Assembly: GCA_945867195.1 (NCBI GenBank)
Contig: CAMBHR010000003.1
Location: 3,958 to 67,957, forward strand
Length of the DNA stretch: 64,000 nt
DNA from: an uncultured bacterium
Lineage (GTDB): Bacteria > Bacteroidota > Bacteroidia > Bacteroidales > Bacteroidaceae
Reading direction: 5' to 3'
Numbering within the stretch: position 1 is the stretch's first letter; each line of letters starts with the position of its first letter. The notes below the pieces were generated by a model. It was given only the letters and a program-made list of their open reading frames with translations. It made no database searches and was not told where the DNA came from. Positions 3,524 to 61,594 of this stretch are shown here, one piece after another. The position numbers and the translations under genes were made by a program.

Positions 3524-3661
3524 CCTCTGTAAAGGAAACAGTGAAGTCCCTGTGCCGAGCACTTCCCAACTTCACAACTCGACGAAGCAACACAATAATT
3601 TATCAGGATAATAGACTTGCCCTTCGAAAGGCGAGGGGCGTAATTAAGACGAAGACTAAAC

Positions 3662-3820
3662 ATGGAAAAGAACAAGAACATCGTCATGCTCCGCTATCGT
3701 ATAGACCGATACAGAGCCATGGGTAACGGCGCGATGTGCCAAGCCCTGGAAAGAGAATTGAACCGTTTGACAACGTCTGCGAAAAACCAAGGAAGTACAT
3801 CTTCTTATTCGGAAATGTAA
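3662..3820 (+). CDS. 52-aa small hypothetical protein (not in ORF track)
   Basis: Hand translation MEKNKNIVMLRYRIDRYRAMGNGAMCQALERELNRLTTSAKNQGSTSSYSEM; A-rich start context, upstream promoter, downstream terminator. Confidence 0.6.
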   Translation: MEKNKNIVMLRYRIDRYRAMGNGAMCQALERELNRLTTSAKNQGSTSSYSEM

Positions 3821-3841
3821 TTCCTGATGCAAGAATATCAT

Positions 3842-3886
3842 AGCCCGGAGCGCGGTATTTCGGTATCGCACCCCGGGCTTTATTGT
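3842..3886 (+). terminator. Terminator after the 52-aa ORF
   Basis: agcccgg...gcggtat-ttcg-gtatcgc...ccgggct hairpin followed by ttattgt. Confidence 0.65.
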
Positions 3887-4004
3887 GCTTTCACGTCAGG
3901 TTCTGCTCAACATACATTTCTGGTCAGTACATTTTCGCTTGTCTTCCGTAGCCGCATTTTTATGAATAGGCATTTAAGTGATGAGCGAGGTGTGATAACC
4001 AGAA

Positions 4005-4062
4005 GAACAAAACGAGAGAATTCTCTCCGCCGTGTGGCAGTGGGAATTCTCTCTTGTTTTTT
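4005..4062. terminator. Likely bidirectional terminator downstream of rpsP
   Basis: aaacgagagaattctc / gggaattctctcttgttt stem with T-rich tails on both strands. Confidence 0.65.
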
Positions 4063-4099
4063 GATTGCCGTTACTCCAAAGAAAGTGGAGTGCAGTTTG

Positions 4100-4651
4100 T
4101 TATGCTTCGGCGGGAGCCTCAGCTTCAGCTTCGGCAGCAGCGGCTGCTTCAGCCTGAGCGGCAGCTTCAGCTTCAGCCTTGGCTGCAGCAGCGGCGGCCT
4201 TCTTTTCGGCTACCTTCTCAGCAATCTTTTCGTTTACTTTCTTCTCGGCCTCCAAGCGAGCCTCGGCAGCGGCCTTCTTGTCAGCGGCCTTCTGGTTGGC
4301 AGCGGCAGTAGCCTTGTTGCTCTTTTCCAGCTTCCAAGCTTCAAACTTGGCCTGAGCAGCAGCTTCGTCGAAAGCTCCCTTGCGCACGCCACCCTTGAGG
4401 TGCTTCATCAGCATGACACCTTCACGCGAAAGGATGTTGCGTACGGTATCGGTAGGCTGTGCGCCGGTTTCCAGCCAATAAAGTGCCCGGTCGAAATTCA
4501 AATCTACTGTGGCGGGATTGGTGTTGGGGTTGTAAGTACCAATCTTTTCAGTAAACTTACCATCACGTGGTGCTCTTGCGTCGGCGATAACGATGCTGTA
4601 GAAAGCGTAACCCTTACGGCCATGACGCTGCAATCTGATCTTAGTTGCCAT
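4100..4651 (-). CDS. rpsP: 30S ribosomal protein S16 with Ala/Lys/Glu-rich C-terminal extension
   Basis: [33 protein letters not shown]; GAQPTDTV. Confidence 0.97.
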
Positions 4652-4709
4652 TTTGTTGTTTAAGTTTTAAAATAGGTTTGAATTATGCCGCTATCTCGTA
4701 ACGGCGGCG

Positions 4710-4717
4710 CAAAATTA
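4710..4717 (-). promoter_or_regulatory. -7 box for rpsP
   Basis: TAATTTTG on minus strand. Confidence 0.55.
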
Positions 4718-4767
4718 CGTTTTTTATTTGTTCTGGCAAGTTTCGATTGCCCTTTTTCTGCTGATTT

Positions 4768-6744
4768 TTACTGCTTTACCTGCATGGATGCTTTCACGAG
4801 GTAGCCAATCAGCAGCAGGTACATGCCCAGCGAGAGCCATTCGGCAGGTGCTGAGGCCAGCCATTCGGCATTGGCAAAGTTCAGCCCGCAAAATTGCATG
4901 GCAGCACTGACCACACCCATCAAGGCACCTCCGGCAATGAAGCCGGAAGCGAGCAGCGTGCCCTTCTCGTTGCGCAGGCTGTTCAGCTTGGCATCGGTGG
5001 AGCGGCTGTTGACATACCAGTTGACGGCACCGCCCACGATGAGGGGCAGGTTGAGTTGCAGAGGGATGAACATACCCAGTGCAAAGGCCAGTGCCGAGAT
5101 GCCGCAGGCGTTGAGCACCAAAGCAATGAGGGCACCGATGCCGTAGAGCAGCCAGGGCGCGCCCTGACCCGACATGAGCGGTTCAATCACCGCAGCCATG
5201 GCGCGGGCCTGCGGGGCGGCCATCACGTCAGAGTTGTCGGGCGTGAAGCCGTAGGCCTTGTTCAAAATCATGATGACACCGCCCACAGTGGCTGCGCTGA
5301 CCAGGATGCCCAGGAACTTGAATGTTTCCTGGTGCTTGGGCGTGCTGCCCAGCCAGTAGCCGATTTTCAGGTCAGTGATGAAAGCACCGGCACTGGAGAG
5401 GGCGGTGCAGACAACGCCACCCATGACGAGGGCAGCCACCATGCCGCCGGTTCCCTTCAGACCCACCAGCACCATGATGATGGACGAAAGGATGAGCGTC
5501 ATGAGCGTCATGCCACTGACTGGGTTACTGCCCACGATGGCAATGGCATTGGCGGCCACCGTGGTAAAAAGGAAGGCGATAACGGCCACAATGAGAATGC
5601 CCACGATGGTGAACAGCAAGTTGCCTCCCATCACGTCGAAGTAGAAGAAGAGAGCCGTGATGACGATGGTGAGCAATGAGCCCACAGCAATGATTTTCAT
5701 GGACAGGTCGCGCTGGGTACGTGCCACCTGTTCAGGTACGGAACCTCCTTTGAATATTTTGCCTACGAGCGTGAAGGCACTGCGGATGACGCTCCAGCTC
5801 TTCACCACACCGATAATGCCGGCCATGGCGATGCCGCCGATGCCGATGCTCTTGGCATAGCTGAAGAGTTGTTCGGGCGAAGCCTCGGCAGCCGTCAGGG
5901 CAGGAGCACCGTTTGCGGCAATGTTCATGTCGGGGAAGATGAGCGCGATGCCGGGCACTATGACCCACCACACGGCCACAGAGCCGAAGCAGATGATGGC
6001 GGCGTATTTCAGGCCGACGATGTAGCCCATACCCAGCAGTGCAGCACTCGTGTTGCAGTTGAACACCAGTTTGGTCTTGTCGGCAAACGCTGCGCCCATT
6101 TCCGTCACGCGGCTGGTGAAGTTTTCCGTCCATGCGCCGAAAGTGGCCACCACAAAGTCATAGAGGCCGCCCAGCAGTCCGGCCACCAAGAGCGGTTTGG
6201 CCTGCGACCCGCTCTTCTCGCCCGAAATGAGCACCTGCGTCGAAGCGGTGGCTTCGGGGAAGGGGTATTTGCCGTGCATATCCTTCACAAAATATTTGCG
6301 GAAGGGGATGAGGAACAAGATGCCCAGTGCGCCGCCGAGCAGCGAAGCCAGGAACACCTGCACGAAGTTGACGGTGAGTTCGGGATACTTGTGTTGCAGG
6401 ATGTAGAGGGCGGGCAGGGTGAAGATGGCACCGGCCACAATCATGCCGGAGCACGCACCGATGCTCTGGATAATCACGTTTTCGCCGAGTGGGTCCTTGC
6501 GGAGGAAGCCACCGCTTAGGCCCACGGCTATGATGGTGATGGGAATGGCCGCTTCAAACACTTGGCCCACTTTCAAGCCGAGATAGGCCGTGGCCGCTGA
6601 GAAGATAACAGCCATGAGGATGCCCCAGGTGATGGACCACGGGGTCACCTCGCGATAGCTCTTGCCCGGTTTCATCAGGGGCTCGTACTCTTCGCCTTCA
6701 CGGAGTTCGCGAAAGGCGTTTTCGGGGAGGGAAGTTTCCTTCAT
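4768..6744 (-). CDS. OPT family oligopeptide transporter
   Basis: Many TM helices; YLGLKVG, FPEATA, SNPVSGM, DLKIGYWLGSTP motifs. Confidence 0.9.
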   Translation of the reverse strand: MKETSLPENAFRELREGEEYEPLMKPGKSYREVTPWSITWGILMAVIFSAATAYLGLKVGQVFEAAIPITIIAVGLSGGFLRKDPLGENVIIQSIGACSGMIVAGAIFTLPALYILQHKYPELTVNFVQVFLASLLGGALGILFLIPFRKYFVKDMHGKYPFPEATASTQVLISGEKSGSQAKPLLVAGLLGGLYDFVVATFGAWTENFTSRVTEMGAAFADKTKLVFNCNTSAALLGMGYIVGLKYAAIICFGSVAVWWVIVPGIALIFPDMNIAANGAPALTAAEASPEQLFSYAKSIGIGGIAMAGIIGVVKSWSVIRSAFTLVGKIFKGGSVPEQVARTQRDLSMKIIAVGSLLTIVITALFFYFDVMGGNLLFTIVGILIVAVIAFLFTTVAANAIAIVGSNPVSGMTLMTLILSSIIMVLVGLKGTGGMVAALVMGGVVCTALSSAGAFITDLKIGYWLGSTPKHQETFKFLGILVSAATVGGVIMILNKAYGFTPDNSDVMAAPQARAMAAVIEPLMSGQGAPWLLYGIGALIALVLNACGISALAFALGMFIPLQLNLPLIVGGAVNWYVNSRSTDAKLNSLRNEKGTLLASGFIAGGALMGVVSAAMQFCGLNFANAEWLASAPAEWLSLGMYLLLIGYLVKASMQVKQ

Positions 6745-6811: not shown

Positions 6812-8839
6812 TTACCACACATCGACGCGCTCTTTCTGGGGAACGTAGAGCGGGTCCTTCTTGCTGATGTTGAAAGCCTTGTACCACGCTTCGATATGGG
6901 GCAGGGCACCGTTGACACGCCATTGTGCCGGAGAGTGCGGGTCAGTCTTGACCTGTTGCCGCAACTTTTCCTCGCGGATATTGTTGGCCCATATCAGGCC
7001 GTAGCTGAGGAAAAATCGCTGTTCGGGCGTGAAGCCGTCCTTGGAGGGCAGCGGATGTGACTTCATGGCATTTTGCAGTGACTGGAAGGCAATGTTCAGT
7101 CCGCCGTGGTCCGCAATGTTCTCTCCCAGGGTGAGCTGTCCGTTGGCGTTCAGGCCGGGCAGCACCTCCACGTGGTCAAAGAAGCGGCGCATCACCTCTG
7201 TGCGTTTCTTGAAGTTCTCCTTGTCGGCATCCGTCCACCAGTTCTTCAGGTTGCCGTCCTTGTCAAACTGCGAACCCTGGTCGTCGAAGCCGTGCGTCAT
7301 TTCGTGGCCGATCACCACGCCGATAGCCCCGTAGTTGCAAGCATCGTCAGCCTCGGCGTTGAAGAATGGCGGCTGCAAGATGCCGGCCGGGAAGCAGATT
7401 TCGTTGGTAGTCGGGTTGTAGTAGGCATTGATGGTCTGCGGTTTCATCAGCCATTCCGTGCGGTCGGTGCGTTTGTTCACGCGCTTGTCGATGTAGTAGT
7501 GGCTCATGAACTGCGTGGCGCGCACCATGTTCTCGTAATAGCTCAGCGATTCGTCAATGTCCAGTCCGCCGTAGTCCATCCATTGGTCGGGATAGCCAAT
7601 TTTCACATAGAAGGCATCCAGCTTTTCGTTGGCCTTGCGCTTGGTCTCCTCGCTCATCCAGGTTTGTTGCGCGATGCGTTCGCGTAGAGCCTGTTGCAGG
7701 TTCTTCACCAACTCCTCCATGCGTTTCTTGGACGATTCGGGGAAGTACTTCTCCACATACATCTTGCCGACCGCCATGCCCAGTGCCCCTTCGACCGAGC
7801 TGATGGCACGTTTCCAGCGCGGGCGGTCCTGTTCCGTTCCGGTCATGGTCCGGTTGTAAAAGTTGAAAGCCTCGGTGCGGAAACGGTCGCTCAGCGAGCT
7901 GGCCGCGTCGTCCACCACCTTATAATATAAGTATGCCTTCAGTTCCTCCAGCGAGCATTCCGCCAGCACCTTTTCCACTTCGTGGATAGGCTCCGGCTGG
8001 TTCACCGAAACGTGTTCCACCGCCGGAATGCCACTGAGCAGGAACAACGTGCTCCAGTCAATTCCGGGGAAGTCGGCCAGCAGTTGCCGGTAACTCATTT
8101 TGTGGTAGTTCTTCTCCACATCGCGTTGTTCTGTGGCACTGTACGATGCCCGGGCAATGCGTGTTTCGATGTTCATCACCGCCTCCATGCCCTTTTCGGC
8201 TTCGGCGGAACTTTTGCCTGTCATTTCAAACAAGTGCTTCACATACTGGCGGTAAGCTTCGCGGATGCGTCGGGTAGGCTCATCGTCGGCCAGGTAGTAG
8301 TCGCGTTCGCCCATCGAAATGCCGCCTTGGCTGATCTGCATCAAGTTCCACTCGGAGTCTTTCAGGTCGGCATCGCACCACAGGCCGAAAAAGCAACCGA
8401 TGCCGCGTGAGAAGAGGCGCGCCGTTGCATAGGAAATTTCCGCTTTGCTGCCGATGGCTTCGATTTCGTCCAGGGCAGGCTGGATGGGGGCGAAATCCTC
8501 CCGGTTGCGCCGCACGCTGTCCATGGCCAGCCGGTAGAGCGAGCCGATTTTCTGTTCGAGTGAGCCTTGCGGATACTGTTTGGAGGCGATGCCTTCAATC
8601 AGTTCGCGCAGCTGCTTGCGGTTGTTTTCGGCCAGTGCCTCAAACTGCGAATAGCGTGCATACTCTGCGGTGAGGGGATGTGCATCGCTCCAGCCTCCGG
8701 TGGCGTAACGGTAAAAGTCCGTTCCCGGCTTGGCAGTCAGGTCCATGTTAGCCTTGTCCAAGCCCGAGGCAAGGGGCTGCTGCGCCAGCGTTGTGCCGGC
8801 AAACATGGCCAAGGTCGGTAGGAATGTTTTGATGTTCAT
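6812..8839 (-). CDS. pepO: M13 family metallo-endopeptidase (PepO-like) with signal peptide
   Basis: NAYY, HEMTH, GENIAD, DPHSP motifs. Confidence 0.92.
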   Translation of the reverse strand: MNIKTFLPTLAMFAGTTLAQQPLASGLDKANMDLTAKPGTDFYRYATGGWSDAHPLTAEYARYSQFEALAENNRKQLRELIEGIASKQYPQGSLEQKIGSLYRLAMDSVRRNREDFAPIQPALDEIEAIGSKAEISYATARLFSRGIGCFFGLWCDADLKDSEWNLMQISQGGISMGERDYYLADDEPTRRIREAYRQYVKHLFEMTGKSSAEAEKGMEAVMNIETRIARASYSATEQRDVEKNYHKMSYRQLLADFPGIDWSTLFLLSGIPAVEHVSVNQPEPIHEVEKVLAECSLEELKAYLYYKVVDDAASSLSDRFRTEAFNFYNRTMTGTEQDRPRWKRAISSVEGALGMAVGKMYVEKYFPESSKKRMEELVKNLQQALRERIAQQTWMSEETKRKANEKLDAFYVKIGYPDQWMDYGGLDIDESLSYYENMVRATQFMSHYYIDKRVNKRTDRTEWLMKPQTINAYYNPTTNEICFPAGILQPPFFNAEADDACNYGAIGVVIGHEMTHGFDDQGSQFDKDGNLKNWWTDADKENFKKRTEVMRRFFDHVEVLPGLNANGQLTLGENIADHGGLNIAFQSLQNAMKSHPLPSKDGFTPEQRFFLSYGLIWANNIREEKLRQQVKTDPHSPAQWRVNGALPHIEAWYKAFNISKKDPLYVPQKERVDVW

Positions 8840-55723: not shown

Positions 55724-56038
55724 TTATTTTTTGCCGGGAGCGACGGCGATGTCGTAGCCGATTTTCTTGAAGGCTTTGACAAAATCCTGATAGGTGCTCT
55801 TCTTGGGGTTATAGATGATGGTCACTCTTTGCTCGGGGACGGAGGTCTCGATCTTTTTCACCCCTTTCACGAAGCGGATGTTGCTTTTGATTTTCTTTTC
55901 GCAATTCTCGCAGTGCATCTGAGGCGTGGTGGTCACTTGCAGCGTGTCGGCGGAGGAAACGTCGGCGGTGTGTGCGGCGTAGGCCGAGGTCGACCATGAT
56001 GCGGCGGCCATGAGGGTGAGGAGGAATGTCTTTTTCAT
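55724..56038 (-). CDS. Exported heavy-metal-associated (HMA) domain protein
   Basis: Signal peptide then MHCENC metal-binding loop, KKIGY. Confidence 0.88.
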   Translation of the reverse strand: MKKTFLLTLMAAASWSTSAYAAHTADVSSADTLQVTTTPQMHCENCEKKIKSNIRFVKGVKKIETSVPEQRVTIIYNPKKSTYQDFVKAFKKIGYDIAVAPGKK

Positions 56039-56090: not shown

Positions 56091-58109
56091 TCAGAATGTT
56101 TCCCATTTGAAGCGCAGGCCGATGTAGGCCATGGCTCCGCTCACGGGTCCCCACACCTGCGTGGCATCGAAGGCAGAGGCCCAAGGGTCCGCCGCTCCAC
56201 GTATGGGTTGGGGGATGGTGTAGCCCGTGAGGTTTTCGCCGCCGATGTAGATGGCGAAGCGGGGAAAGTCGCGGGTTATCTGCGCCTGTAGTTGGAAGTA
56301 GGCGGGATAACGCGAGTGGTCATAGAGTTCGCCGCCACCGTTCAGGCTGCCCGTGAGGTCAAAGTGCCAGAGTTCAAGCGGTGTCTTGTAGGCCAAGGTG
56401 AGCAGGCTTTTGTAGCGCGAGGTGAGGGGGCGGCGGCGCAGGCTGCCGTCGTAGGTGGTGCGTGCATCAGTGTAGCGGAAGGCCCCTGTGGCGGTGAAGC
56501 CTGCAAAGAAGGGGTAGTTGGCATCGATTTGCGCGGCATGGGTGCGGCTCTTGCCCGACAGGTTTTCAAACGAGAAGGTGTCGGAGCCTTTGGCACCATC
56601 GGGGTTGATGACGAGCTGTTGACTGAAGTCGGTGTAGTAATAATCGAGGTTCAGCTCCAGCGTCTTGCCGAAGATGGGGAGACGGAACGAGGCCGAGAGC
56701 CCGGTGTTCCAGGCCTCCTCCTGCCGCAGCTTCTCGGTGGCGATGAGCGTCTTCCCACTGGCCAGCAACGACACGTTTTCGGCTAAGGCATGGGGCGAAC
56801 GGTAACCTTTGCCTGCCGAAGCGCGGAGGGTGAGGCAGTCCTTGGGGGAGTATTTCAGATGCAGGCGCGGGGTGAGGAAACCGCCGTAGACTGACGAGTA
56901 GTCCCAGCGCAGGCCCGGCATAAGGGTGAACCGCTCGCCCTGCTTGAAGGTGTATTGGGCGTAAAATCCCGAGGTCGTTTCGTGGCGCGGTCCGAAGAGG
57001 TTTTGCTGGTCGCCCGTCAGCGCGTTGTACAAATCGATTGTCTGGTTGTAGGTATCGTGGTTGACAGATGTCCCCACGCTGAGATTGTGCCGGTCGGTGA
57101 AGTCCGTTTCAAACATAAGCTGTGCGTAGCCGCTCTTTTGGTTGGCATCGTACAGGGTGCGCCCGAAGCGGTTGTCGGCATCGTGTATGGAACCGTTGAG
57201 CATGAGGGCCACGGAAGTGTTGTGCTCAGGGTCAAGGGTGAAACCGTTCTTCCACTGCGCTTCGTAACGGAGGGTGTTGACCTCAATGCCGTAGTGGGGC
57301 GTTGTATGGTTCGTTCCGTGGTGGCTCATGCCGCTTTCGCGTTCGTCGGCCAGTGCCTTGAAACTCAGCTGGCTGATCCAGCGGGGCGACACGTAGGCCA
57401 TGCGTGCCATGGCGTTCCATCCGCGCAGCTTGGGCATGTCCATGAAACCGTCGCCATCCCCGTCGTGGTCTGTCTGCCGGTTCTCAAAATGCAGCAGTCC
57501 GCTGGCCGAGAGGCGTTCGTTGAGGTGGAAACTGCCGTCGAGGTTGGCTTCCTGCTTCAGTTCTGTGTCGGCATAGGCATTGGCGCGGATGCCGTCCGTA
57601 CCTTGGGGCTTGAGGTATTCCACGTTGATTTGCCCCGTGATGCTCTCGTAGCCGTTCTTGACGCTGGCGGCCCCTTTGCTCACCTGTATGCTCTGCATCC
57701 ACGGCCCGGGCACGTAGGCGAGGGAGTAGGGGATGGATGCGCCGCGCAGGTTGGGCATATTTTCCGTGAGCATCTGCACATAGGTGCCACTCAGTCCCAG
57801 CAGTTTGATTTGCCGTGCTCCCGTCGCCGCATCGCTGTAGGAAACGTCCACTGAAGGATTGGTGGTGAATGACTCGCCCAGATTGCAGCACGCCGCCCGC
57901 ATGAGTTCGCCTTTGCCGATGATGTCGGTGTTGGTAACGCGGAAGCGCGACTTGCCGCCCGGCGATGCTTTGACCGTCACGTTGTGGAGGTTCTGACTCC
58001 GGGGCACGGTGTCCTGTACCACGCTGTCAGTAGGGTGCATGGCACTCTGGGCGACAGCACATAGTGTAGGGCTGATTGTCAGTAAGAGTGTAGTAGTAAC
58101 TCTTTTCAT
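56091..58109 (-). CDS. TonB-dependent receptor with Cys-Cys plug motif
   Basis: AACCNLGESF, QIKLLGL, KGAASV plug motifs; C-terminal barrel strand; start at ATG 58109. Confidence 0.88.
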   Translation of the reverse strand: MKRVTTTLLLTISPTLCAVAQSAMHPTDSVVQDTVPRSQNLHNVTVKASPGGKSRFRVTNTDIIGKGELMRAACCNLGESFTTNPSVDVSYSDAATGARQIKLLGLSGTYVQMLTENMPNLRGASIPYSLAYVPGPWMQSIQVSKGAASVKNGYESITGQINVEYLKPQGTDGIRANAYADTELKQEANLDGSFHLNERLSASGLLHFENRQTDHDGDGDGFMDMPKLRGWNAMARMAYVSPRWISQLSFKALADERESGMSHHGTNHTTPHYGIEVNTLRYEAQWKNGFTLDPEHNTSVALMLNGSIHDADNRFGRTLYDANQKSGYAQLMFETDFTDRHNLSVGTSVNHDTYNQTIDLYNALTGDQQNLFGPRHETTSGFYAQYTFKQGERFTLMPGLRWDYSSVYGGFLTPRLHLKYSPKDCLTLRASAGKGYRSPHALAENVSLLASGKTLIATEKLRQEEAWNTGLSASFRLPIFGKTLELNLDYYYTDFSQQLVINPDGAKGSDTFSFENLSGKSRTHAAQIDANYPFFAGFTATGAFRYTDARTTYDGSLRRRPLTSRYKSLLTLAYKTPLELWHFDLTGSLNGGGELYDHSRYPAYFQLQAQITRDFPRFAIYIGGENLTGYTIPQPIRGAADPWASAFDATQVWGPVSGAMAYIGLRFKWETF

Positions 58110-58120
58110 TAAAGAAAAAT

Positions 58121-58279
58121 CTATGGACGCCAGAAAACCCACCATGGCAATGGTCCCGAATTTTTACGGGAAAGGGCATAGCGGAAAAGTTCCATCATAT
58201 ACCATACCACGGCAATAAAGGCGAGCACAAGAGCGGCGATAAAGAGCCACCCGATGATGTGGGCTGCTATATTGATCAT
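58121..58279 (-). CDS. 52-aa single-pass membrane protein (not in ORF track)
   Basis: Hand translation MINIAAHIIGWLFIAALVLAFIAVVWYMMELFRYALSRKNSGPLPWWVFWRP; exactly fills the lysA-TBDR gap. Confidence 0.65.
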   Translation of the reverse strand: MINIAAHIIGWLFIAALVLAFIAVVWYMMELFRYALSRKNSGPLPWWVFWRP

Positions 58280-58281
58280 GA

Positions 58282-59433
58282 TTATTCGCTGAAATATGCC
58301 GGGGCGAGGGGGCGTAGGTTGTACTGCGAGGCCATCACTTCGCCGTAAGCACCGGCAGAACGGAAGGCGATGAGGTCGCCCCGGTGGGTGACGGGCAGCA
58401 CTTCGTCCTTGCTAAACACGTCGCTGCTTTCGCAGATGGGTCCCACGATGTCGTAGGTATCATGGGGAGCACCATCGGGCGCGCTGATATTTTGGGTGAA
58501 GTGGTGAGAGCCGTACATGGCAGGCCGGATGAGGTCGGTGAAGCCCGCGTCGACAATGACAAATTGTTTGGTATGGCCTTGTTTCACGTAGAGCGTGCGG
58601 GCAATGAGCGAGCCGCACTGTGCCACGATGCTGCGTCCCAGTTCAAAATGCAGTTGCTGGTGGGGGCGGAGCTGCAGGTGTTTTTCAAAGACGGCGAAAT
58701 ACTTTTCAAAATCAGGCACGGGATGCGCATCGGGCTGTCCGTAGTCAATGCCCAGGCCACCGCCCACGTTGATGCTTTCGGTGCGGATGCCTTCGGCTTC
58801 GAGCACGTTCTGTAGCTCGTTCACCTTCAGGCAGAGTGCGCGGAAAGGTTCCATGTCCGTAATCTGGCTGCCGATGTGGAAATGCAGTCCGACGTAGTGT
58901 ACCCCGGGCAATTCATTGGCCCTGCGGATGGCCGCCAGCGTGTCTTCCCACGCGATGCCGAATTTGTTCTCGTTCAGGCCGGTGGTAATCTTGGCGTGGG
59001 TGTGTGCATCCACGTTGGGGTTGATGCGGAAGGCCACCTTTGCCTGCTTGCCCATGGCAACAGCCTGCTCGTTGATGGCTTCCAGCTCGGGCAGACTTTC
59101 CACGTTGAAGCTATGGATGCCCGCTTCGAGAGCCAGCCGTATTTCCTTGTCGGTTTTCCCCACGCCGGCAAAGACGATGGATGAGGAAGCAAATCCGTTT
59201 TTCAATGCCGCTTCAATCTCGCCGCCCGAAACGCAGTCGGCTCCCAGTCCGGCCGCACTGATGATTTGCAGCAGTCGCGGGTTGGCATTGGCCTTGATGG
59301 CATAATGCACGTGATAGGCATTGCGGCCAGCCAGCAGGTGTCTGATGTTTTGGAGCGTTGTCTTGAGCAGTCCGAGGTCGTAGTAATAAAAAGGAGTGTC
59401 CAGTTGTTGAAATTGTGTCAGAGGGAAGTTCAT
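58282..59433 (-). CDS. lysA: Diaminopimelate decarboxylase
   Basis: YAIKAN, DCVSGGE, HFHIGSQ, NVGGG, ELGR, GPICES, GAYG. Confidence 0.95.
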   Translation of the reverse strand: MNFPLTQFQQLDTPFYYYDLGLLKTTLQNIRHLLAGRNAYHVHYAIKANANPRLLQIISAAGLGADCVSGGEIEAALKNGFASSSIVFAGVGKTDKEIRLALEAGIHSFNVESLPELEAINEQAVAMGKQAKVAFRINPNVDAHTHAKITTGLNENKFGIAWEDTLAAIRRANELPGVHYVGLHFHIGSQITDMEPFRALCLKVNELQNVLEAEGIRTESINVGGGLGIDYGQPDAHPVPDFEKYFAVFEKHLQLRPHQQLHFELGRSIVAQCGSLIARTLYVKQGHTKQFVIVDAGFTDLIRPAMYGSHHFTQNISAPDGAPHDTYDIVGPICESSDVFSKDEVLPVTHRGDLIAFRSAGAYGEVMASQYNLRPLAPAYFSE

Positions 59434-59501: not shown

Positions 59502-60830
59502 TTATGCGTTGTTTTCGGTTACGAAGAGCTTGTTGCTCAGGGCGCAGAGTGCCGCCTTCTTGTCGGCCTCGCGCACTAAAAGAGAAATGTTGTGATTGCT
59601 GCCGCCGTAGGAAATCATGCGTACGGGAATTTCCGCCACGGCTTCCACCACGCGTGTTTCAAAGCCCACGTTGCCCCAGCGGAGGTCGCCCACGACGCAG
59701 ATGATGCACATGTTCTCGTCGGTTTCCACCGTGCCGTACTTCTTCAGCTCTTCGGTGATGGCGGCCAGATGTGCCGTGTTGTCAATCGTCACAGTCACGC
59801 CCACCTCGCTGGTTGTTACCATGTCGATGGGTGTGTGGTTCGTCTCGAAAATCTCGAACACCTTGCGCAGGAACCCAGTGGCGAGGAGCATCCGTGAGGA
59901 GACAATCTTGATGGCGGTGATGTTGTCCTTGGCGGCCACGGCCTTGATGTTGCCGCGTTGCATCTCGTTGTTGATGATGGTGCCCGGTGCGTTGGGGTCC
60001 ATGGTGTTGAGCAGTTTCACGGGCACCCCGGCGTAGCGTGCGGGTTGGATGCAGGTAGGGTGGAGGATTTTCGCACCGAAATAAGCCAGTTCGGCAGCCT
60101 CTTCAAAGTTGAGCTGGCGCACGGGCGTCGTGCCTTCCACGAAGCGCGGGTCGTTGTTGTGCATACCGTCAATGTCCGTCCATATCTGGATTTCCTCCGC
60201 TCCGAGCGCGGCACCGATGAGGCAGGCCGTGTAGTCAGAGCCGCCACGTTGCAGGTTGTCGATTTCGCCCAGGTGGTTGCGGCAGATGAAGCCCTGCGTG
60301 ATATACAGGTCGTAGCCGGGATGCTGCTTCAGTTGTTCGGCAATGTGCGTTTTGATGAAGCCCATGTCCGGCTCGCCGTTGTCATCGGTGCGCATATAAT
60401 CAAGTGCCGGAAGCAGTTTCACCTTCACGCTACACTCCAGTAGGTAGTTGGTCACCATGTTGGTGCTCATCAGCTCGCCCTGTGCCAGAATTTCCTTCTC
60501 CAGAGAGAGGGAATATTCCTGTGCGGTGAGGTTGTGCAGGTGGCGGAATATGCCGTTGAGCAATGCTTGGGTCTTGTCTGCGTTTTCGGATTGCACGTAG
60601 AGGTTGTCCACGTGCTGCATATAGAGGTTGCGCAGTTTGTTGATGACATTGTTGGCAGCTTCTGGATTGCGCTTGTTGATGTAGTCGGCAATTTCTACCA
60701 GCGAGTTGGTCGTGCCCGACATGGCGGAGAGGACCACAATCTTCTGTTCGCCGTCGTGTATGAGTTTGCACACATCTTTCATGCGCTGGGGCGAGCCTAC
60801 CGAAGTGCCGCCGAATTTCAATATTTTCAT
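59502..60830 (-). CDS. lysC: Aspartate kinase
   Basis: KFGGTSV, VLSAM, RGGSD, WTDIDG, C-terminal ACT domains. Confidence 0.95.
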   Translation of the reverse strand: MKILKFGGTSVGSPQRMKDVCKLIHDGEQKIVVLSAMSGTTNSLVEIADYINKRNPEAANNVINKLRNLYMQHVDNLYVQSENADKTQALLNGIFRHLHNLTAQEYSLSLEKEILAQGELMSTNMVTNYLLECSVKVKLLPALDYMRTDDNGEPDMGFIKTHIAEQLKQHPGYDLYITQGFICRNHLGEIDNLQRGGSDYTACLIGAALGAEEIQIWTDIDGMHNNDPRFVEGTTPVRQLNFEEAAELAYFGAKILHPTCIQPARYAGVPVKLLNTMDPNAPGTIINNEMQRGNIKAVAAKDNITAIKIVSSRMLLATGFLRKVFEIFETNHTPIDMVTTSEVGVTVTIDNTAHLAAITEELKKYGTVETDENMCIICVVGDLRWGNVGFETRVVEAVAEIPVRMISYGGSNHNISLLVREADKKAALCALSNKLFVTENNA

Positions 60831-60901: not shown

Positions 60902-61594
60902 TCAGATAGACAGTTCCATGGCCCGGTTGTACTCCTCGGTCACGAGTTTGGCTTCACCGTCCTGCAGGCGGTAAACGATGCCGGGAAATTCGGAGAGCAG
61001 GTGCAGGTTGTGCGTCACCATGACCACTGCCGTACCTTTTTCTCGTATGCCGAGCAGGAGCTGCATGATTTGCCGGCTCGTTTCGGTATCGAGGTTGCCG
61101 ATGGGTTCGTCCGCCAGCACGATTTCCGGGTGATTCAGCAGGGCTCGTGCGATGCACACCCTTTGCTGTTCTCCGCCGGAGAGCTCGTGAGGGTATCGGT
61201 CTATTTTGTCTGCCAGCCCCACGAGTTCGAGCACCTCTGCCATGCGTTGGGGGCGCAGTTTCTTTTTCCATCCCGTGGCGCGCAGCACGAAGTCGAGGTT
61301 TTGCCTCACTGTGCGGTCGTGCAGCAGCTCGAATTTCTGGAACACGATGCCCAGCTTGCGCCGCAGTGGCGGGATGTGCTTGTTCTTCAGTTTTCGCAGG
61401 TCATAGTCCAGGATGCGTGCCTGTCCCTTCTTCACCGGCACCTCGCCGTAGAGCGATTTGAGCAGTGTGCTCTTTCCGCTGCCCACTTTGCCCACGATGT
61501 AGACAAAGTCGCCCCGGTCAACCTGAAAATTGACATGGGAGAGCACGGGGTCTTCTTCATGGCTCAGTGCCACGTCGTTGAGTTCTATCAGCAT
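60902..61594 (-). CDS. ftsE: FtsE-like ABC ATP-binding protein
   Basis: GKVGSGKST, LRRKLGIVFQ, LSGGEQQR, ADEPIGNLD; ftsE-lysC-lysA order as in Bacteroides. Confidence 0.75.
   Translation of the reverse strand: MLIELNDVALSHEEDPVLSHVNFQVDRGDFVYIVGKVGSGKSTLLKSLYGEVPVKKGQARILDYDLRKLKNKHIPPLRRKLGIVFQKFELLHDRTVRQNLDFVLRATGWKKKLRPQRMAEVLELVGLADKIDRYPHELSGGEQQRVCIARALLNHPEIVLADEPIGNLDTETSRQIMQLLLGIREKGTAVVMVTHNLHLLSEFPGIVYRLQDGEAKLVTEEYNRAMELSI

Follow-up and report, generated by a model that had tools for sequence, protein, structure and literature searches.

An orphan phage moron encoding a Trp-rich small membrane protein next to lysA in Bacteroidales, a candidate entry-exclusion gene

Lactococcal Sie2009 is an envelope protein that is expressed from a prophage and blocks genome entry, and phage sensitivity to Sie2009, as to Ltp, maps to the tape measure protein. 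Ltp of S. thermophilus TP-J34 (PMC3952083) and SieA of P22 (PMC10883804) are likewise prophage-expressed envelope proteins that block genome entry. HK97 gp15 is a prophage-expressed inner-membrane protein that blocks genome entry of HK97 and HK75 in a manner dependent on the tail region, and it has chromosomal relatives, YebO (PMC3594210); the work on gp15 as a moron and as an exclusion protein (Juhala 2000, Cumby 2012) is reviewed in the same source (PMC3594210). In the GenBank record of HK97, gp15 is a "moron product" of 62 aa with one helix, encoded between the frameshifted chaperone (7472–8145) and the tape measure gene (from 8435).

We analyzed a stretch of 64,000 nt from an uncultured bacterium of the Bacteroidaceae (the window), in which a small ORF lies between lysA and the gene of a TonB-dependent receptor. 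The features of this region are as follows:

58121..58279, minus strand: small membrane ORF of 52 codons (stop included; ATG at 58279, TAG at 58121–58123), an orphan, chromosomal member of the "PLPWWVFWRP" class of phage slot genes
58193..58267, minus strand: predicted single transmembrane helix, residues 5–29 (from the sequence, the AlphaFold2 helix 2–40 and the alignments)
58124..58153, minus strand: Trp-rich C-terminal motif PLPWWVFWRP, residues 43–52
58282..59433, minus strand: lysA, diaminopimelate decarboxylase (TIGR01048, 9.6e-123)
59502..60830, minus strand: aspartate kinase (AK); the AK–lysA pair is conserved genus-wide
56091..58109, minus strand: TonB-dependent receptor (Plug and TonB_dep_Rec_b-barrel domains)
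55724..56038, minus strand: secreted HMA-domain protein (PF00403, 5.7e-14)

The small gene belongs with morons of the HK97-gp15 type, as a new form that is unrelated to gp15 in sequence. In the window, it is present as a domesticated orphan, and it is more likely to block phage entry than to serve the receptor. By analogy with gp15, we give about an even chance to the reading that the window ORF encodes a domesticated inner-membrane entry-exclusion protein.

Re-reading of the sequence confirmed all the elements that the original prediction had listed: an ORF of 52 aa, located 2 nt (TC) after the lysA stop and ending 11 nt before the receptor ATG, with a single transmembrane helix and a basic linker that leads into the tail PLPWWVFWRP. 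The receptor most plausibly starts at ATG 58109, which gives a signal-peptide-like beginning (MKRVTTTLLL...AVAQS); the alternative ATG 58145 produces an overlap of 25 nt with the small ORF, and this longer form is the choice of the gene callers on the sister contigs. The small ORF is already called as a gene on these contigs, and NCBI is among the listed sources of its cluster. Its GC content is 49.1%, vs. 57.0% for lysA and 59.6% for the receptor, over a length of only 159 nt.

The peptide (MINIAAHIIGWLFIAALVLAFIAVVWYMMELFRYALSRKNSGPLPWWVFWRP) consists of hydrophobic residues 5–29, followed by ELFRYALSRKNSG and then by PLPWWVFWRP, its presumed functional end; the predicted membrane helix (residues 5–29) appears in the alignments as the variable part of the family. 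AlphaFold2, with a 21-sequence alignment, gave a helix at residues 2–40 and a short helix at 46–50 (mean pLDDT 85.5), with pLDDT values of 91–97 across residues 1–30, i.e., one N-terminal transmembrane helix. There are 0–1 basic residues on the N-terminal side of the helix and four on the C-terminal side (R33, R38, K39 and R51), which, by the positive-inside rule, points to an N-out, C-in topology. The peptide would then be bitopic, with a very short outside N-terminus and a single transmembrane helix, followed by a basic juxtamembrane stretch and by the Trp-rich tail at the cytoplasmic face.

Intact homologues of 49–62 aa are present at more than 40 loci. A word-indexed search of 5.8 billion proteins gave nine clusters (49–52 aa, 52–94% identity), all ending in GPLPWWVFWR(P/S), and scans of IMG/VR and GTDB genomes gave 26 further loci with the ORF intact in 26/26. 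The median dN/dS (Nei–Gojobori, NG86) was 0.185 for 216 pairs among 24 distinct nucleotide sequences, a set in which synonymous sites are close to saturation. Within the window's lineage, represented by sister contigs of 95–97% nucleotide identity, omega was 0.18–0.33, comparable with 0.07–0.19 for lysA and 0.15–0.28 for the HMA gene. Residues L44, P45, W46, W47, F49, W50 and R51 are invariant across 21 distinct sequences, and LPWW.FWR is fixed in the protein while its codons are diverse: all six codons occur for Arg and four each for Leu and Val, and Pro is also variable. On the basis of purifying selection, intact homologues and tight packing, we consider the small ORF to be a genuine coding gene, as had been proposed; an ORF conserved in this way greatly exceeds what chance would produce.

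Across 1.84 billion cluster representatives, a full profile search with HMMER yielded no more than 25 clusters, and the peptide family is therefore real but narrow. Pfam, NCBIfam and PHROGs hold no family for this peptide (at E ≤ 1, Pfam and NCBIfam returned noise only), and none of the defense-protein models of PADLOC-DB 2.0 matched any of four alleles at E ≤ 1.

Two possible roles had also been suggested for the peptide, as an accessory subunit in the receptor/HMA metal-uptake system or as a coupler of lysA and receptor translation. Such roles would agree with the spacing of 2 nt and 11 nt on the same strand and with the conservation of the arrangement across the sister contigs (95–97% identity), but the wider comparison points the other way. 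Receptor orthologues with 44–53% identity occur in 13 congeners, and the 12 that were examined are all located at other loci with their own upstream regions, none of which contains a small ORF that is homologous or conserved in any other way; the receptor system thus functions in the absence of the peptide. The HMA gene directly follows the receptor in six of these 12 congeners and also in some more distant Bacteroidales. Conversely, the ORF is present without any receptor in phages and in two orphan chromosomal copies (L098 and L105), where its neighbors are unrelated genes. The adjacency of lysA and the receptor is itself lineage-specific: the AK–lysA pair is conserved in 18 lysA-bearing relatives, the next gene varies (queE/queD-like, radical SAM, valS and others), the receptor is downstream of lysA in none of the 18, and the order AK–lysA–ORF–receptor–HMA is confined to sequences with 92–94% identity. 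It follows from the variable gene order after lysA that the lysA–ORF–receptor junction is specific to the window's lineage. Neither the accessory nor the coupler function was borne out; both are largely refuted by these sequence comparisons, and we give them almost no chance. The tight spacing is a result of the ORF's assimilation into a host operon and is no evidence of an ancestral functional link.

It should be noted that the 3′ side of lysA (window 58282–59433; loci L037–L049) is a synteny breakpoint in this genus, with a different downstream gene in every species examined. Upstream of the receptors of some congeners, there are genes for secreted proteins of 130–176 aa that are His-rich (HTHDHTHDHNHD...) or Cys/His-rich (L070:1150–1680; L066:658–1074; L067:961–1350), which supports a role of the receptor/HMA pair itself in metal uptake.

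All homologues with less than about 90% identity are found in phage tail modules or as orphans beside unrelated genes. The approximately 30 phage loci belong to a single family, Mu-like transposable myophages of Bacteroidales; the nearest of them show 72% nucleotide identity to the window ORF, and the homology ends at the ORF limits. Their tail genes encode a tail sheath (phrog_907), tube, baseplate hub, tape measure and Amidase_2. The phages also encode a Mu-type transposase (phrog_310, 1e-48) and a MuB-like ATPase (phrog_296), with neither a tyrosine integrase nor rve in the phage records, and one record is classed as a provirus. These phages are temperate and transposable. The genome of one congener (G010) has such a prophage, with an allele of class a as defined below, and no prophage of this family was found in the window's genome. 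A tblastn search with the peptide against 50,697 GenBank phage records gave no match; the closest deposited phages are Flavobacterium myophages, with a sheath identity of only 36%.

Several other properties of these phages and of the host genome were observed. Some phages have an RVT_1 reverse transcriptase just past the tail genes (L028:1–1183, L029:198–1556), which probably represents a diversity-generating retroelement targeting a tail protein. Contigs of this Bacteroidales phage family also occur in MAGs labeled Oscillospiraceae, Lachnospiraceae and Staphylococcus (L099, L100, L101, L104), probably as a result of mis-binning. The window's genome (G000) contains CRISPR arrays at C13:37093–37930 and C40:118–1176; the C13 repeat ends in ...AATTTCTACTATTGTAGAT and is presumably of the Cas12a type, and none of the spacers of this genome matched the phage segments compared, a negative of little weight given the 4–10 kb covered per phage.

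In the phages, the small gene occupies a slot of about 200 nt, on the opposite strand, between the frameshifted tail chaperone and the tape measure gene. In L028, the 112-aa tail chaperone ends at the canonical slippery sequence A_AAA_AAC (6371–6377, minus strand), and the −1 frame runs for 70 more codons; the tail chaperone of lambda, G/GT, likewise has a frameshift extension. The stop codons of the chaperone extension and of the small ORF, on the two strands, overlap as TTAA, and the small-ORF ATG is 46 nt from the tape measure ATG, the two genes being divergent. Since the extension ends at the end of the ORF, the ORF has about 200 nt of its own; for the same reason, we rejected the possibility that the phage ORF is an antisense shadow of the chaperone extension. 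The A_AAA_AAC sequence with the 70-codon extension is also present in related phages; the gene callers missed the extension, leaving an apparent gap of 400 nt.

We compared this region in 80 related phage loci, fetched with the chaperone. The 13 distant loci (chaperones 38–44% identical) have no slot: the extension and the tape measure gene are −3 to 36 nt apart, with no small ORF between them. The slot in the other loci is 147–230 nt long, with one exception (L154, 391 nt), and every slot holds an opposite-strand one-helix ORF of 28–62 aa. These ORFs fall into diverse classes by their ends: ...GPLPWWVFWRP in class a, ...GKNGSLPWL in class b, and ...MPWG, ...PWWVWWSS..., ...PWWAFW... or a simply basic end in others. 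One class-a slot ORF (L124/L125) reads PLHWWVFWRP, with His for the second Pro, the only change there among the phage alleles examined.

Between the start codons of the small ORF and the tape measure gene, 25–39 nt upstream of the small-ORF ATG, an exact TAnnTTTG box was found in 19/21 class-a loci and 16/17 loci of other classes (35/38 overall), as a match to the consensus only. We take this sequence to be the Bacteroidetes −7 promoter box, the consensus being that of the Bacteroides promoter literature. Between positions 61000 and 55650 of the window, TAnnTTTG is not found upstream of the ORF or of the receptor, and one copy lies within the receptor gene. The phages therefore contain an extra gene between genes that are adjacent in related phages, with its own promoter as judged by the consensus box, which is missing from the window copy. 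By this comparison of loci, the phage small gene qualifies as a moron in the strict sense (Juhala/Hendrix definition).

The peptide and the adjoining part of the tape measure protein are hypervariable. Over 465 phage pairs, the mean identity was 38% for the peptide, 51% for tape-measure residues 15–75, 88% for residues 76–250 and 65% for the chaperone. Peptide identity correlated with that of tape-measure residues 15–75 with a Spearman coefficient of 0.74 (0.83 among close phages), vs. 0.44 (0.21 among close phages) for residues 76–250; given the non-independence of the pairs, we rely on the effect sizes alone. Residues 15–75 of the tape measure protein fall into types that match the peptide class. 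Different slot classes occur in near-identical phages: L112 and L110 share 97% identity as far as the chaperone extension reaches and 94.6% beyond the first ~210 nt of the tape measure gene, whereas the slot and these ~210 nt either cannot be aligned or show 76% identity. Co-adaptation or simple linkage could account for the co-variation of peptide and tape measure, and it could also arise because the upstream, regulatory DNA of the peptide gene is antisense to tape-measure codons 15–75.

Exchange of the gene as one cassette with tape-measure codons 15–75, together with its presence in nearly all close phage relatives, would also be expected of a phage-cycle factor that acts with the N-terminal part of its own tape measure in ejection, tail assembly or lysis timing, the orphan copies being functionless leftovers. 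This explanation is at odds with the location of the gene on the strand opposite to the late operon under its own promoter, with its absence from more distant relatives sharing this tail module, and with the three orphans described below, which are trimmed to this gene and still intact (omega 0.18–0.33 in the window lineage); we regard it as rather unlikely.

Entry exclusion of the gp15 kind is proposed because HK97 gp15 occupies the same slot, is of similar size and has one helix. The likeness comprises the slot between chaperone and tape measure, a length of 62 aa vs. 49–62 aa, one N-terminal membrane helix, absence from related phages, and chromosomal relatives outside prophages. The present family differs in that it is inverted relative to the tail genes, has an invariant Trp-rich C-terminal motif and belongs to Mu-like myophages of Bacteroidales, and its exclusion function would be assigned by analogy. 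Membership in the gp15/YebO family was rejected, since there is no sequence or profile similarity: BLASTP gave no alignment of the peptide with gp15, the hhalign probability was 1.7%, and there was no Pfam match to the YebO model (PF13974). As an exclusion factor, the peptide would also resemble SieA, Ltp and Sie2009 in being a prophage-expressed envelope protein directed against genome entry, but these proteins are unrelated in sequence and are much larger or lipoproteins. To our knowledge, none of the proteins of this type is a 50-aa peptide with a cytoplasm-facing motif.

Three bacterial lineages carry the gene outside any phage, with 159, 289 and 188 nt of phage DNA. Each orphan is closest to a different phage subclade and has unrelated, non-phage surroundings. 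In a Prevotellaceae MAG (L105), 188 nt are 92.6% identical to one subclade and retain the promoter box; this orphan is located between a 202-aa gene and an MFS transporter. In a Bacteroidales MAG (L098), 289 nt are 87.5% identical to a second subclade and retain the promoter box and ~45 nt of the tape-measure start. The window copy, between lysA and the receptor, is closest to a third subclade (72% at the nucleotide level), with homology limited to the ORF and the promoter box gone. Judged by subclade and surroundings, the three captures are independent. That a phage of ~35 kb was reduced three times to this one gene, each time with the gene intact, speaks for a benefit to the host. A plausible route to such orphans would be random Mu-type insertion with subsequent deletion.

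The L098 orphan is located just after three tandem repeats of ~418 nt (3542–4839), with a fourth, partial copy 2.2 kb downstream (7029–7239). The repeats bracket the peptide gene and two others (164 aa and 379 aa), have no Rfam match, and may be a cassette-like or recombination-prone array. Neither the window nor the orphan loci gave a match to any RNA family of Rfam.

A hydrophobic protein of 50 aa, encoded antisense to the late tail transcript in phages, could also be a small membrane toxin, whether type I toxin-like, abortive-infection, holin or antiholin, that antisense late transcription silences in phages. However, the window copy took its place behind a co-oriented housekeeping gene before the sister lineages diverged (dS ~0.13–0.24), which a toxic product would make difficult to explain, and Amidase_2 is encoded ~3.4 kb away on the other strand, so that the phage gene does not lie in a lysis cassette. 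We consider a toxin very improbable.

The gene began as a moron of temperate Mu-like transposable myophages infecting Prevotella-like Bacteroidales. According to the entry-exclusion model, transcription would run backwards from the gene's own promoter, so that synthesis of the peptide in the lysogen need not depend on the late operon. By analogy with gp15, the peptide would most likely be located in the inner membrane and stop DNA delivery by incoming phages of the matching tape-measure type, for which the co-variation with tape-measure residues 15–75 is indirect support. An ancestor of the window's species retained nothing but this gene of a decayed phage insertion; after loss of the phage promoter, the window copy would be read through from the AK–lysA transcription unit, which would provide constitutive stand-alone protection. 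The model is weakest in that, by the predicted topology, the conserved motif would face the cytoplasm, where contact with the incoming tape measure is not obvious.

A more specific version is a lock-and-key cassette, in which the ~50-aa peptide and the first 75 tape-measure residues together would set which phages a lysogen excludes, the Trp-rich decapeptide would be the conserved effector, and gut bacteria would repeatedly "vaccinate" themselves by keeping the peptide gene of 159–289 nt, one lineage having wired it into a housekeeping operon. We put this forward tentatively, as possible and on the whole doubtful.

The enterobacterial regulatory proteins AcrZ, SgrT and MgrB each have a single helix plus a short tail, through which they bind a larger membrane protein. 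The peptide has the same size and architecture, an N-terminal helix with a short cytoplasmic tail, and could similarly tune a transporter or sensor in the host inner membrane, giving the lysogen a benefit apart from exclusion. The invariant 10-residue motif suggests a conserved partner, for which a host protein fits better than a hypervariable phage protein, and retention of the gene in host operons would also be explained. On the other hand, the membrane helix and the adjoining tape-measure segment are hypervariable in an arms-race-like manner, and other slot classes lack the WW motif. Unlike the peptide, AcrZ, SgrT and MgrB are neither phage-borne nor hypervariable and share no sequence with it, so the analogy is mechanistic only. 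Modulation of host physiology therefore appears unlikely.

Small membrane proteins regularly escape detection, and next to nothing is known of what they do in Bacteroidales. The present analysis sets right the assignment to the receptor/HMA system, a guilt-by-adjacency annotation that was plausible but wrong, and ties a "hypothetical" chromosomal peptide to a phage slot with an experimentally characterized analogue, HK97 gp15, which makes its function directly testable. If the peptide is an exclusion factor, the slot between chaperone and tape measure would be an exclusion locus far beyond the lambdoid phages, and the gene would be a minimal defense gene of 50 aa that current defense-finding tools do not detect. 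Hosts would then repeatedly domesticate a single phage moron, which would bear on phage resistance in gut Prevotella-like bacteria.
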